NCBI GenBank assembly: GCA_038087875.1
Contig: CM075988.1
Coordinates: 8,372,001 to 8,436,000, forward strand
From: Malacoraja senta
Taxonomy: Eukaryota
Direction of reading: 5' to 3'
DNA: 64,000 nt
The notes beneath the pieces are model-generated. The model was given only the letters and a program-made list of their open reading frames with translations, did no database searches and was not told the origin of the DNA. Positions within the stretch are counted from its first letter, which is position 1. Each line of letters starts with the position of its first letter. The translations under genes and the position numbers were made by a program. Positions 657 to 62,789 of this stretch are shown here, in pieces.

Positions 657-740
657 ATGTCTGAAGAAAGGTCTCGACCTGAAACGTCACCTATTCCTCA
701 GCTGACCCGCTGAGTTACTCCAGCTCTTTGTCTATCTTTC
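657..740 (+). mobile_element. Short Penelope-like (PLE) 3'-end copy inserted in a (TA)n tract
   Basis: gtctgaagaaaggtctcgacctgaaacgtcacc...gctgagttactccagc; flanked on both sides by tttatgtatatatata. Confidence 0.85.
659..692 (+). ncRNA. Minimal hammerhead ribozyme motif (intact core)
   Basis: CTGAAGA 661-667, extra A, stem II AGGT-ctcg-ACCT 669-680, GAAA 681-684, palindromic ACGT stem III, GTC cleavage triplet 686-688. Confidence 0.75.
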
Positions 741-747
741 TTTTATG

Positions 748-781
748 TATATATATATATATATATATATATATATATATA
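748..781. repeat. (TA)n microsatellite
   Basis: Pure TA run; a shorter run lies at 639-655. Confidence 0.95.
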
Positions 782-1573
782 CACGACAATAACCAAGATG
801 GGGTTTTTTAATGCCTAATAACATATAAATGCCTCACTGTTGATGAAGTAACTTCTGAAATGAACCAGTGAAGGTGAAATGTACAATGTGCAAGCAATTC
901 TCCATTGCCTTTTTGACAATGGATTGACATTAAAAAACATCCTAGAAAGTGATATTGAAAATGGTAGACTGAGGTAGGCAGTGTCACTGGAGACTGACTT
1001 CGACCTGTAATAAGATATATTCAGCCTGATGCCAAGAAATGCTTCACACTAAAAAATTAACATTCCAGTTGAATTCCAGTTAAAATGGTGGCGACCACAA
1101 TCCTGAGCTCATCTAAGAAACAGACAGAGATTGAGAAAGGCTGATGAGTTTTTGTCTGGATGGGTGACCTGGGGCAAGTTGGGTGACCTTATCATCTATC
1201 AGACACAGCACTCCTATCATCAATTTCTTCTGGTTTCCTTTTCTCCAGGAAAATGATACTTAAATTTCGATGTGGGATGAAGGGATATCCTCAAACAGAT
1301 GGAAAATTCACCGTCTGGAACTCAGATGCAAATCCTCACTCCATCCCAGTCCATGCCACGGTACTTACAGTAACTATAAGGATTAGCACTTCAAGACAAA
1401 TTGTAATGACAGTGCGCAAAATCAGCTTGATTTGGAGAATACCGACCATCCTTGTATTTGTTAAAAAAGGAAGGTGTAAATATTCTTTCATCTGAGTATT
1501 CCAATTGATTTTACAAAACTGATTTCATAGCTGGTGTTGAATTGGAAATGTATTGGAGTAATGGCAGGGGGAG

Positions 1574-1730
1574 GGGGCCACAATGCGGGCAGCTAGCAGA
1601 GTCTCTTACTCACAGTGACAGATACCTGAGTTCAATCCTGACCTCGGGTGCTACTGTATCCCTGCAGCATCTGCACATTATCCAGGTGACCTTGTAGGTT
1701 CCTCCATGTGCTCTGATTTTTTTCGTAGGT
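1574..1730 (+). mobile_element. Degenerate V-SINE 5' part
   Basis: cctgagttcaatcctgacctcgggtgct B-box region and decayed V-domain. Confidence 0.6.
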
Positions 1731-1734
1731 TCAT

Positions 1735-2920
1735 AGTACAGAACATAGTACATAGTAGGTACATAGGCCCTTTGTCTTCATTCATCTATGCTGACCAAGA
1801 TGCCTACCTAACTAATTCAATTTTCCTTCATTCGCCCTTACCCCTTCGAACCTTACCTATCCATGTTCCTGACCAAATGTCTTTAAAAATCGTACATTAT
1901 TTTTGCCTATATTACCTCCTCTGGCAGTTCTTGCCAATGTTCCCATCGCCCACTGTGTGAAAATCTTGCCCCAGAGATCTTCTTTAAATGTTTTCCCCCT
2001 CCCCTTCGCCTCTTGCCTTCTAGTTATGGACTCCTCTATCTACTGTATCTATGTCTCTCATAATATTATATACTTCTATTAGGTCATCGATCCGCCTCCT
2101 TTGCACTGGGAAAAAAGTCCCAGCTAATCTAATCTCTCCTTATAACTCTGCCCTCCAAACCAGGTAATATTCTTGTGAATCTTTGCTGCACTCTCTATGG
2201 ATTAATCGCATAGCTCCGATAGTGTGGCAACCACATACAATAGTCCAAGTGTAGTGCGACCAATGTTTTATACAACTGTAACATGAAGTCCAATTTCTGT
2301 CCTCAATGCCATAGCCGATGAAGAAATGATGATGTCATATGCCTTCACTATATTCTGTCTACCTGTGTCACCATTCTCAGGGCAGTACGTACTTGCACCC
2401 CAAGGTCTTGCATTTCAGTAACAGTTCCCAGGGATAGACACAAAATGCTGGAGAAACTCAACAGATCAGGCAGCATCTCCAGATAGAAGGATTGGGGTGA
2501 CATTTCGTCTCCCATTCCCTCGATCCAGAGATGCTGCCTGACCTGTTGAGCTTCTCCAGCATTTTGTGTCAATCTTCGGTGTAAACAAGCATCTGCTGCT
2601 TCCCACACAGACCCTGTCAGTCACTGTGTTTGTTCTGGCCAGGTTTAACTTACCAAAATTCATCACTTCACACTTGCCTGAGTTAAATTCCATCAGCCAG
2701 TTCCCAATTTCCTCAGTTAATCTACATCCTGTTGTAACCTTGGACAACCTTCTTCACTCCACTATACCACTATTTTGGCATTGTTTGTTAACTTACTAAT
2801 CATCCCATCCACATTCGCTACCAATCCATATATGCTGAATACTAAATGACCCAGCACCGATCCCAGCAGCACCCCAGCTGCTGGGATCGATACAGCTTTC
2901 AATCTGAAAAACAACACGAT
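1735..2920 (-). mobile_element. Old CR1 LINE 3' fragment, interrupted by a PLE fold-back
   Basis: Minus-strand remnants WLMEFNSGKCEVMNFGK and GSVLGHLVFSIY...ISKL; CR1 3' UTR near 1740-1900. Confidence 0.75.
2432..2608. mobile_element. PLE 3'-end fold-back (palindromic) element
   Basis: Inverted arms (gacacaaaatgctggag.../...ctccagcattttgtgtc); junction at the gtgacatttcg remnant of the ribozyme. Confidence 0.85.
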
Positions 2921-2924
2921 GTTG

Positions 2925-59762: not shown

Positions 59763-59829
59763 TATTCCCATCCATTCTCAGGAAGGATTCATTAAATGTG
59801 ATATATGCATGCGATTCTGGGCAAAGTGA

Positions 59830-60065
59830 AGACACAAGCAACTGCAGATGCTGGAGGAACTCATAGGGTCAGACAGCATCTGTGCTGGAAACAGACAGGT
59901 AATGCTTCGGGTCGGGACCCAGATTCTAGGCCAATATGCCCAAATGTATGGGTCTGAAGAAGGGTTCCAATCCGAAACATCCTCTTTCTCCGGAGATGCT
60001 TTTTCTCCTTTTTCTCCAGAGATGCTGCCTGGCCCATTGCATTACTCCAGCACTTTGCGTCTATC
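59830..60065. mobile_element. PLE fold-back element with spacer
   Basis: gcttcgggtcgggaccc ... gggtctgaagaagggttccaatccgaaacatcc. Confidence 0.8.
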
Positions 60066-60221
60066 AGGGGAACATTTGTCAGATCCCTATTAACACTGAT
60101 CCAGTTGGGTTTAGTTACTGGTGGAGATTGATTGTCCTGAATATCCTGCAGAAGAATAAGCCACTTGGCCCGCACACGCCAGGGTAATTAATGCATTTAA
60201 TATTCCCTCTCCGTGTTTCAG

Positions 60222-60562
60222 ATCAAGTTCACAAGTGATAGGAACAGAATTAGGCCATTCGGCCCATCAAGTCTACTCCACCATTCAATCATGGTTGATC
60301 TATCTCTCCCTTCTAACCCCATTCTCATGCCTTCTCCCCATAGCCCCTGACACACGTACTAACCAAGAATCTATCTATCTCTGCCTTAAAAATATCCATT
60401 GACGGCCTCCACAGCCTTCTGTGGCAATGAATTCTACAGATTCACCACCCTCTGACTAAAGACATTTCTCCTCATCTCCTTCCTAAAGGAACGTCCTTTA
60501 ATTCTGAGGCCATTACCTCTGGCCCTAGACTCTCCCACTAGTGGAAACATCCTCTCCAATCC
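60222..60562 (-). mobile_element. CR1 3' end
   Basis: LERMFPLVGESRARG...RKEMRRNVFSQRVVNL on minus strand. Confidence 0.9.
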
Positions 60563-61884
60563 TCTCCTTGATGTAAAGTATGTTATATTGTGCCATCCAT
60601 AGACTAGGGTACCGCAGCATTGCACTTACCAATCCCACTTTGCCACTCTGTCATGGACACACCATGGTTACATTTCGCTGCACACCACAATGTATTAACC
60701 CATTGACCGACACGACAACTGCAGTCGTGTCACCATCTTTTGCGCCTAAACCAGGTGTTTTCCCAGCTAATTGGAGTCCTCTCAGCGAGAAACTGTATTT
60801 CGGCAAAGTTACAGCTTGCTGCTATATAGAGACAGCGGGCGGAAGCAGAATTAGCTCTTGAAAGGGTTAATCAGAACCCAGCCACATATCATTTCGAGAG
60901 TTCAGTAATTATAAAGAGCGGATCCAGAGGCTGACGATGACAAGTAGCTTGGGTTTCAGCATTTTATGGAGCTGATGTAAAATGCACATGTATTAGGGGC
61001 ACACTTAAAGCCCAAATAACTATATTTATTTGCTCAAGGTAATTACAAAGCCTGCTGCTGTTTCCTGTTCTCTACCCTCCTCCTTACTGTAGTGTGAAAT
61101 CCACAGGAAGAAGCCATCAGGCACCATCCCTGAGGTCTCACCCATTAATGCCCAAACCTTGACTCTCAGGCAAGAGCTTGCTGAAATTGTACCTTTCGAT
61201 TTCTTGATATAGAGCGCTCCAGAAGGGAAGGGGTGATTCATATCTCGCATGCCAATCTCATGGCAGGAACAGAATCTCCAGAGACTTGTTATATTTAGTC
61301 ATTCTGCCTTATTGTTAAAACACCAGAACTCCTAATAGCTGCAATTACATAGCAGGGTTGACAATGCCTGTTCGCTCGGGGGCAACTCTTCCAGCATCTC
61401 CTTTCTCTGGGACTCTGAATGGGCTGCTTCCTCCTTCCACCTGACCCACCCTGTCACACTCCACTAACAGAAGCGTTACAATCCATAACCTCTGCCTTGT
61501 TAATTCTCTCATTACTCTTGCCATATTTCCAAGCTTCGCTTCTACTCTGCACTGCAGGCCTTAGGGTCTGTTTATTCAATAAAAGGCTAGAGGGCCTCTT
61601 TCCAATTATTGGATTGATTTTAACTAAACTGCTTTCTCTGTTCACCTACACTAAATCCAAAGATAACACAAAACACCAGGAGCCTAATTCTAAACTTTGC
61701 ACACTTTGCGTGTTGAGTTTATTAAAAATCATTCCACACATCTGTTCCATTAATTGTGATTGTGAAATAATATGGATAAAATAACGGAGAGACGTAACGA
61801 CAATCAATGAATGAATGACACAGTCATGGGATGAACAGTGAATTGAGGTTGGATGTTTTGCCATTGGGAAGGAAAAGAACAGAA

Positions 61885-62168
61885 GGTCCGTGGTGGTACA
61901 GTGGTAGAGCTCTGGTAAAGCCAGAGACACAGGTTCGATCCTGACCTCGGGCGCTATCTAAGTGGAGTTTGCACGTTCACCCTGTGGACACGTGGGTTTT
62001 CATCAGGTACTTGGTTTTCTCCCACATCCCAAAGACGTGCGGAATTGATCTCTTTAAATTGCGGGATTGGATGAGAAAGTGAGATAACATGGAACTAGTG
62101 TGACTGAGTGATTGATGGTCAGTGCAAACTGGCTTGGCTGAAAGGCCTGTTTCCATGCTGTATCTAAC
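61885..62168 (+). mobile_element. V-SINE
   Basis: Head, V-domain, tail aaggcctgtttccatgctgtatc. Confidence 0.85.
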
Positions 62169-62789
62169 ATGGTGCGATCTACTCTGCCCTGGAAGTCTAA
62201 GAACAGGACAAGATCATCTAGCCCTTCCAACCAGTTCCACCAATGAATGAAAGCATGGACAATCTTGCCTTCCTCAAACACTAATCCATTGGTATTCAAG
62301 ACTAGAAAAATAAAAGATTTGAAACAAAAGCCCATTGAGCTGATATGTTAATTCTGTTTCTATTTCTCAAATGCTGCCTGACCTGTTGAGTGATCTTAGC
62401 ATTTTCCGTTTACCTGGCTGATTCGAGTTGTAACTGAGGTTGCATCCATTACATTTTGCAGGCAAGTTCAGTTCTTCGACTGGCTTTGTGTGAAGCAGGG
62501 TTTCTTAACTTCCTACCTGCCTTTGATTAGACTGTTGCATGTACAGGTCCCCCACCAGCAATTCCACAGCTACCATACAAACTCCTGAACACTTCAATCA
62601 ACTTACAGGGAATGTAAGCCAAGCTCGTATGATTGCAATTTTCACCCCAGAGCTCTGTCAATCCACGAGACTTGCAAAAACGGGCTACTGTTTTACGGTA
62701 TCAGAATAAGTCAGATTTTCCGTTGCAAAGAAGTCCAAACATGCAAACATGCATGCATAAACAGAGAATAAGAGGTGGTGGGTTTCTTA

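Follow-up and report, generated by a model that had tools for sequence, protein, structure and literature searches.

Within a 64,000-nucleotide stretch of the Malacoraja senta genome (GenBank assembly GCA_038087875.1, contig CM075988.1, positions 8,372,001 to 8,436,000 of the forward strand; hereafter the window), a short repeat headed by a minimal hammerhead ribozyme motif is inserted at 43 loci. These insertions are probably dead-on-arrival stubs of an endonuclease-bearing Penelope-like element (PLE), a retrotransposon, made by the mode of priming proposed below. They share one unit, begin at the edge of the hammerhead head, stop at either of two 3' positions, form inverted pairs, are flanked by duplications and have decayed. 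Such features are textbook marks of PLE insertion, and the units are therefore read as truncated PLE stubs, not as a self-cleaving short interspersed element (SINE). A first-pass annotation, made from the sequence alone, had described very many tiny retroposed units lacking an open reading frame (ORF). The retroposition, the lack of an ORF and the abundance stand; the units would, however, be by-products of a PLE rather than a separate family.

Fragments were collected by an iterated nhmmer profile search of the whole window and then grouped into loci. The profile found 59 fragments, with a median identity of 85% to their majority sequence, and had no match in the reversed window, which served as a control. 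The fragments form 15 inverted pairs and 28 solos, one locus per approximately 1.5 kb, so the earlier estimate of about 40 copies at this spacing is right at the level of loci. Together, the units cover 6,049 of the 64,000 bases (9.5%). BLAST with five natural copies as queries detects 51 fragments, and the pattern CTGANGA-N6-20-GAAA occurs 18 times where 2.9 matches are expected, a number reached in none of 100 shuffles. In the numbering used here, column 4 of the unit is C3 of the hammerhead, the head spans columns 1-34 and the predicted cut follows column 31.

Insertion architecture and the 5' boundary

Head-to-head pairing, which the first-pass annotation did not mention, involves 30 of the 59 fragments. 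Inverted neighbours are oriented head-to-head 15 times and tail-to-tail never; in 5,000 trials of random placement, the head-to-head count averages 2.0 and does not exceed 7. The 3' ends are bimodal, lying at columns ~81-105 or ~111-133, about 33 nt apart, and the two groups flank the 3' strand of an 8-bp helix that is conserved (columns 51-58 pairing with 109-116). A long arm is combined with a short one in 12 of the 15 pairs (p = 0.015), as at 2428..2601, 6482..6685, 9161..9356, 40912..41146 and 59828..60086, and solos show both kinds of end (16 short, 12 long). In the pairs at 9507..9711 and 31938..32117, the short arm has extra 5' sequence and the long arm has the tail, each lacking in the partner. 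The former pair is young, with arms 98.7% identical and a 15-bp duplication containing one mismatch; the latter has a 10-bp duplication.

Direct repeats of at least 7 bp (7-20 bp) flank 13 of the 43 loci, against 0.64 (maximum 3) in mismatched-flank controls. One of the 13, at the solo 659..738 (+), is spurious as a target-site duplication (TSD), being a TA microsatellite. The repeats include a perfect 14-bp duplication around the pair at 51314..51532, 12 bp at the pair 17131..17365, and 10 bp at both the pair 37451..37661 and the solo 54890..55019 (-). Shorter ones accompany the solo 58488..58619 (-; 8 bp), the pair 53231..53462 (7 bp) and the tailed solo 32577..32708 (+), where 7 bp abut column 3. 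Palindromic junctions are located at 17269 and 53333 in two of these pairs and at 56761 in the pair 56641..56861. None of the 59 fragments ends in a poly(A) or A-run tail. An array of the unit is absent from the 26 rows reported by the tandem repeat finder TRF for the window, and the sole same-strand neighbour is an internal duplication.

In the available parts of the published accounts (Arkhipova et al. 2013, PMC3846280; Craig et al. 2021, PMC8557442), PLEs of the endonuclease-bearing (EN+) type share with these loci an inverted, 5'-truncated pseudo-long terminal repeat (pLTR) in head-to-head orientation, a palindromic junction, a tail of 30-40 bp at one end only, TSDs of 8-10 bp and solo pLTRs. 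However, both arms are ORF-less stubs of 70-133 nt here, and their point of 5' truncation is fixed, whereas that of the EN+ elements is variable.

The fixed 5' end does not coincide with the ribozyme cleavage site. Fragments start at columns 1-5 in 31 of 59 cases and at columns 30-34, around the cut site, in none; the templates were therefore apparently uncleaved. A unit whose 5' end is defined by cleavage, as implied by the earlier description of ribozyme-headed units, does not agree with starts that lie some 30 nt upstream of the cut. At three 5' junctions (10157-10183, 53298-53339 and 6330-6371), the first 10-12 nt of the hammerhead are tandemly duplicated, which suggests slippage of the reverse transcriptase (RT) or re-priming at the boundary.

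Four public sequencing runs were mapped on positions 14830-15225, which contain the copy at 14848 described below; most reads and contigs match at 95% identity or less. The RNA data consist of one fragmented poly(A) run from another organism. Of 24.9 million DNA contigs, 207,126 match, as do 18,829 of the 7.3 million RNA reads; contigs are not equal to copies, and their count points to a copy number of 10^5 or more. The loose ends are most numerous before 15073-15074 (2,378 + 759 RNA reads and 2,067 + 1,028 DNA contigs), and RNA depth increases across this boundary from ~656 to ~7,477, about 11-fold. Joints to the opposite strand begin at the same boundary, including in DNA contigs. RNA reads are equally distributed over both strands and their ends pile up nowhere, the cut site included; coming from a run of this kind, these last two results are weak evidence.

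The boundary has two resemblances, one to an initiator (TCAGT) and one to an acceptor in which AG follows a pyrimidine tract; relative to the 14848 copy, an inserted CTC restores TCAGT in 62 of 959 reads. Because of this double resemblance, the discrete 5' stop is most likely the template's 5' terminus or a splice junction at this place. Among the 15 of 257 joints shown, none is a splice joint into 15073-15075; a candidate donor at 14875 lies in a masked stretch. For comparison, the intron described in D. virilis ends at hammerhead helix I and begins 46 nt past the transcription start. In run X23, a joint from 15154 to 15116 (134 RNA reads with 74 starts) corresponds to a 39-nt internal repeat of the body; it is also present in DNA contigs and probably derives from one expressed locus with an internal duplication.

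The hammerhead motif and its probable PLE context

The head resembles, feature by feature, the consensus of metazoan PLE minimal type I hammerheads in the part of the supplement available (Cervera & de la Pena 2014, PMC4209133). The matching features are the U-rich lead-in, CUGANGA followed by one base, the G10.1-C11.1 pair, GAAA, a CG palindrome and UH; CUGANGA, GAAA and UH in type I order, with the extra base after A9, form the majority pattern. As in the pLTR hammerheads of that study, the palindromic 15.2-16.2 pair takes the place of helix III, stem I is short, and the motifs are mostly single truncated copies, some of them in close opposite-strand pairs. Stem II, on the other hand, has 7-8 bp in Schistosoma and 4 bp here, where stem I of the main subfamily has 2-3 bp. 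The portion of the published alignment examined contains no cartilaginous fish. By extrapolation, the copy number implied by the density in the window lies far above the ~4,000 motifs of coelacanth or the ~9,000 of Xenopus given there.

A covariance model built from the heads detects the head in 34 fragments of the window, 27 of which are its training sequences. Among the 29 gap-free heads, every invariant core base is kept in 14, and five are intact, combining the core with all four stem II pairs and the 15.2-16.2 pair (in one of the five through G-U). The copies that the first-pass annotation ranked as its best five (659-692, 10140-10175, 17238-17272, 54985-55018 and 58585-58619) all carry the motif at these positions, and four of them are among the intact heads; that at 17238-17272 has the motif but also a stem II mismatch and is not intact. 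Intact heads thus belong to the solo at 659..738, which has the short 3' end, and to three tailed solos, 10051..10173 (-), 54890..55019 and 58488..58619. In helix II, 90.7% of the cells are paired, the G10.1-C11.1 position being G-C in 19 of 27 heads, A-U in four and G-U in two. The 15.2-16.2 palindrome is ACGU by majority; C-G is retained in 11 of 27 heads, and the remainder is mostly CpG decay. Stem I has 2-4 bp, in line with the caveat attached to the earlier description, and real covariation in it is seen only in comparison with the divergent subfamily described below. The GG before TCTGA lies inside the TSDs in several copies and therefore provides no evidence for a longer stem I.

Conservation was compared at non-CpG positions in the 31 copies starting at columns 1-5. 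Core cells equal the majority base in 235 of 248 cases (94.8%) versus 1814 of 2124 (85.4%) downstream (p = 1e-5), so that the core is conserved in excess of the rest of the unit; this and the fit to the consensus support the annotation's reading of the motif as a PLE-type minimal hammerhead. Tests matched for base gave p values of 0.008 (A), 0.09 (G) and 0.015 (T), and a column-wise test p = 0.004. In the same copies, loop II cells equal the majority in 34 of 60 cases, and CpG columns have decayed to 70%. Judged from these sequences, the over-conserved core together with the CpG decay and the small numbers of complete cores and intact heads suggests that selection probably acted on the motif in the source elements and that the motif is decaying neutrally in the stubs. 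The earlier picture of ribozyme-headed units is not borne out as it was stated: with 5 of 29 complete heads intact, most copies would not be working ribozymes.

An Rfam search of the window, proposed in the first-pass annotation, gave no hammerhead at the gathering score (0 matches) and none among the 31 matches listed at E<=10. Such a miss is expected for hammerhead motifs lacking helix III. Matches resembling miRNAs were rejected as inverted pairs or simple repeats. Single-strand folding gave z values of -2.2 to +0.1, isolated heads folding no better than shuffles, and cofolding of five natural copies led to alternative duplexes and no double hammerhead.

The copy at 14848 places the head in a larger context. 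The segment 14848..14880 (+) encodes ten codons and a stop (GMNIDFSNAK*), likely the C-terminus of a PLE protein. It is followed by a pyrimidine-rich pLTR at 14881..15072 (+), by the minimal type I hammerhead head at 15073..15106 (+), in which G12 is lost, and by the downstream body at 15107..15203 (+), which is made up of an inner hairpin, a long helix and an optional tail of ~33 nt. The distance from the ORF end to the head is ~195 nt. The upstream pLTR occurs once in the window, the last 40 nt of it being 77.5% pyrimidine, and it is joined to the head in many public DNA contigs, for example over 14921-15083 and 14927-15100. The hammerhead is accordingly found within a pLTR both at 14848-15203 and in the contigs joining pLTR and head. 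The whole copy interrupts a SINE-like repeat and is accompanied by a degenerate duplication.

The first-pass annotation had taken this copy to tie the unit to a PLE ORF. Peptide and head are indeed contiguous, but the link amounts to ten codons, and PLE membership is for that reason based on the architecture and the motif. Its description of the units as PLE 3' ends is half right, as in tandem PLEs the same sequence is also the 5' part of the next transcript. Near the stop codon there is a GxN motif, which is typical of GIY-YIG C-termini and may mark one here. A regular-expression search of the window, with motifs we assume to mark PLE proteins, returned the 14848 fragment and one chance match only, and scanning contigs from metagenomes, viruses and GTDB for motifs gave 0 matches in each collection. 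Of the 74 open frames listed, 13 were compared with Pfam; three of them matched RVT_1 or exo/endonuclease families, and no PLE-specific family was matched.

Mechanism and rival explanations

The steps proposed here follow by analogy from the Poseidon element of Anolis. A PLE protein would bind RNA structure that lies immediately downstream of the hammerhead and would cut the target DNA. Reverse transcription would be primed inside the RNA, at columns ~95-100 or ~130, and 100-130 nt would be copied until a discrete stop is met at the 5' edge of the ribozyme. In about a third of the events, both cut ends of the target would probably be primed, one per site, and the two cDNA ends would be joined head to head, leaving one long and one short arm. 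The hammerhead would ride along as a passenger on uncleaved templates. The unique sequence held by each arm of 9507-9711 and 31938-32117 fits two copying events.

In the available part of its description, Poseidon_Ac of Anolis carolinensis (Frangieh et al. 2024, PMC11167929) shares the position of the hammerhead just upstream of two internal RT starts, which define the tail. Uncleaved RNA is its substrate, and at its cut site no RNA-seq ends are seen. In vitro, extension takes place from both target strands, and the hammerhead is dispensable for insertion and active only with protein. The ORF of Poseidon_Ac starts in stem II, whereas here, by eye, no frame within the unit is kept across subfamilies.

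More tentatively, the stubs may record PLE protein that primes on the 5'-terminal one of its binding-site copies and runs off the transcript start, in 10^5 or more copies. The pairs of long and short arms would then be left by a protein dimer as it copies two RNAs onto the cut ends on both sides, and a double hammerhead could be assembled through this same pairing of RNAs. We regard this extension as possible, and doubtful. If true, the stubs would be a genome-scale readout of PLE integration and would explain why the PLE ribozyme needs protein.

Several observations weigh against reading the loci as PLE stubs primed from both sides. No TSD was detected at 30 of the 43 loci. No RT or GIY-YIG homology was found, with ten terminal codons present in the window and reads masked over 14830-14920. 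The 5' boundary may be a transcription start, a splice junction or an RT stall; we lean towards an RNA 5' end because the copies share no upstream sequence (loose-end agreement 0.32-0.41). As for the ribozyme, stem I is 55.7% paired in an alignment of 27 heads, picked from the 59 fragments for having a head, and its columns are partly flanking sequence. Covariation is weak in this alignment: 72.8% of the cells are paired versus 70.5% after shuffling, with 25 of 500 and 18 of 500 shuffles as high by two measures, and 301 of 500 shuffles reach the observed level of pairs with double changes. A compensatory stem I change in copy 9616 was rejected, as it proved to be junction sequence. The cells of the conservation test are partly dependent, copies within pairs being related. 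Partner arms are only modestly closer to each other (83% identity) than arms of different pairs (76%), and in 8 of 26 arms the partner is among the three closest. The junction is centred on column 3 in five pairs, the long arm keeping the native T in four, and the asymmetry of arms could alternatively come from later deletion at the centre of the palindrome.

The last two points also enter the strongest rival, in which the PLE origin is the same and a single cDNA gives rise to the inverted arm by folding back and priming itself (or this happens on an antisense template) at the TCAG-N-CTGA micro-palindrome. Self-priming is the published reading of such palindromes, the version with an antisense template being proposed by Arkhipova et al. 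2013 (PMC3846280), and the five junctions at column 3 suit it, yet retention of the native base in four of five is compatible with a 50:50 expectation. An arm made by fold-back cannot contain what its template arm lacks, as happens at 9507-9711 and 31938-32117, unless the centre was later deleted; moreover, solos use both 3' ends. We consider fold-back a possible route, short of a probable one.

It is unlikely, to our judgement, that the units form a non-autonomous element in its own right, either SINE-like or a non-LTR retrozyme in monomeric form, whose ~130-nt ORF-less copies are transcribed and re-mobilised in trans by PLE protein, the reading implied by the first-pass annotation. Extension far upstream of the head is clear at only one of the 43 loci, the 14848 copy, and the structured region of the RT starts is retained, its long helix being 93% conserved; both would suit such an element. 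Non-LTR retrozymes, as far as the consulted parts of two sources go (PMC7229834; bioRxiv 10.64898/2026.07.22.740005), are likewise ORF-less, carry a type I hammerhead, and, in the latter source, derive from pLTRs and leave dispersed monomers. In contrast to them, the units in the window are non-tandem, inverted instead of direct, and bounded at positions unrelated to the cut site. The lack of a tandem array, of starts at the cut site and of poly(A) tails speaks against an independent element, as do the contiguity of the upstream pLTR with the unit in many contigs and the RNA signal, which, equal on both strands and free of end pile-up, is as for passive read-through.

Finally, miniature inverted-repeat transposable elements or foldback DNA transposons moving as a unit, with an incidental hammerhead look, could account for 15 long inverted repeats flanked by direct repeats, but this explanation is very improbable and largely refuted by the duplication length, which ranges from 7 to 15 bp, the unequal arms, the junctions that differ among loci, the 28 solo loci and the selective conservation of the hammerhead core.

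Other loci, neighbouring sequence and significance

Beyond the loci already given, head-to-head pairs are found at 7398..7592 and, without a head, at 54173..54341, and a degenerate inverted pair at 3224..3353. Solos with a tail occupy 6242..6361 (-), 21691..21796 (+), 38160..38281 (-) and 56152..56284 (-). Other solos lie at 4473..4564, 8797..8896 and 11199..11315 on the plus strand and at 2927..3016, 13087..13179, 33864..33961 and 55808..55908 on the minus strand. Solo fragments are present at 47772..47821 (+) and 57536..57571 (+), and weak solos at 39098..39162 (+; E 7e-4) and 39532..39611 (+; E 3e-3).

A divergent subfamily comprises 9878..9957, 26140..26231, 36202..36279, 40257..40430, 41639..41737 and 62336..62416, all on the plus strand, and 34981..35093 on the minus strand; its members are solos only, never inverted pairs. 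Loop II has 5 nt in two of these copies, and in the best copy, at 41639..41737, stem II is closed by an A-U pair and stem I has 4 bp. Another subfamily, GUU, with U at the cut-site position and a different tail, consists of 9507-9711, 47772-47821, 51314-51532, 54890-55019 and 55808-55908 and includes the youngest-looking pairs.

The SINE-like repeat split by the 14848 insertion (14761-14847 and 15197-15290), presumably HE1-like, is itself abundant, its halves giving 13 and 21 BLAST matches, and similar copies lie at 4967, 21458, 23290, 30934, 35394, 40063, 41898 and 44090. Fragments of long interspersed elements at 28922-30133, 47064-47828 and 62888-63784 contain one frame of the AP-endonuclease type and two that match RVT_1; one of these fragments is interrupted by the solo at 47772. 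A GC-rich 43-bp tandem repeat (5.4 copies, 11500-11736) is adjoined by a minus-strand frame of 186 amino acids at 11540-12100, which has no Pfam match and the middle of which could be a host exon. ARAGORN found no tRNA genes in the window; an Rfam tRNA match at 61887-61952, below threshold (26.2 bits versus 29) and not called by ARAGORN, is possibly the head of a SINE.

PLEs are reported in the whale shark and retrozymes in one chondrichthyan (bioRxiv 10.64898/2026.07.22.740005); related work includes PMC2377424, PMC8455134 and PMC6155905. A keyword search of those portions of PLE paper supplements that were at hand gave no chondrichthyan PLE and no such motif. No publication describing this stub family was found by title or the start of the abstract, a search that lay outside Repbase and Dfam, which may well contain the family.

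The components described here are already known and most copies are decayed; what is notable is the density, the sharp 5' boundary and the asymmetry of the arms. The integration cycle of PLEs is unsettled as regards the origin of inverted arms and tails and the role of the hammerhead. Since an insertion occurs every 1.5 kb, with a 5' boundary that is fixed and 3' ends of two kinds, the family offers sufficient events for counts to discriminate between fold-back and two-sided priming. A vertebrate genome can, moreover, give several percent of its DNA to stubs with a ribozyme motif that Rfam misses.

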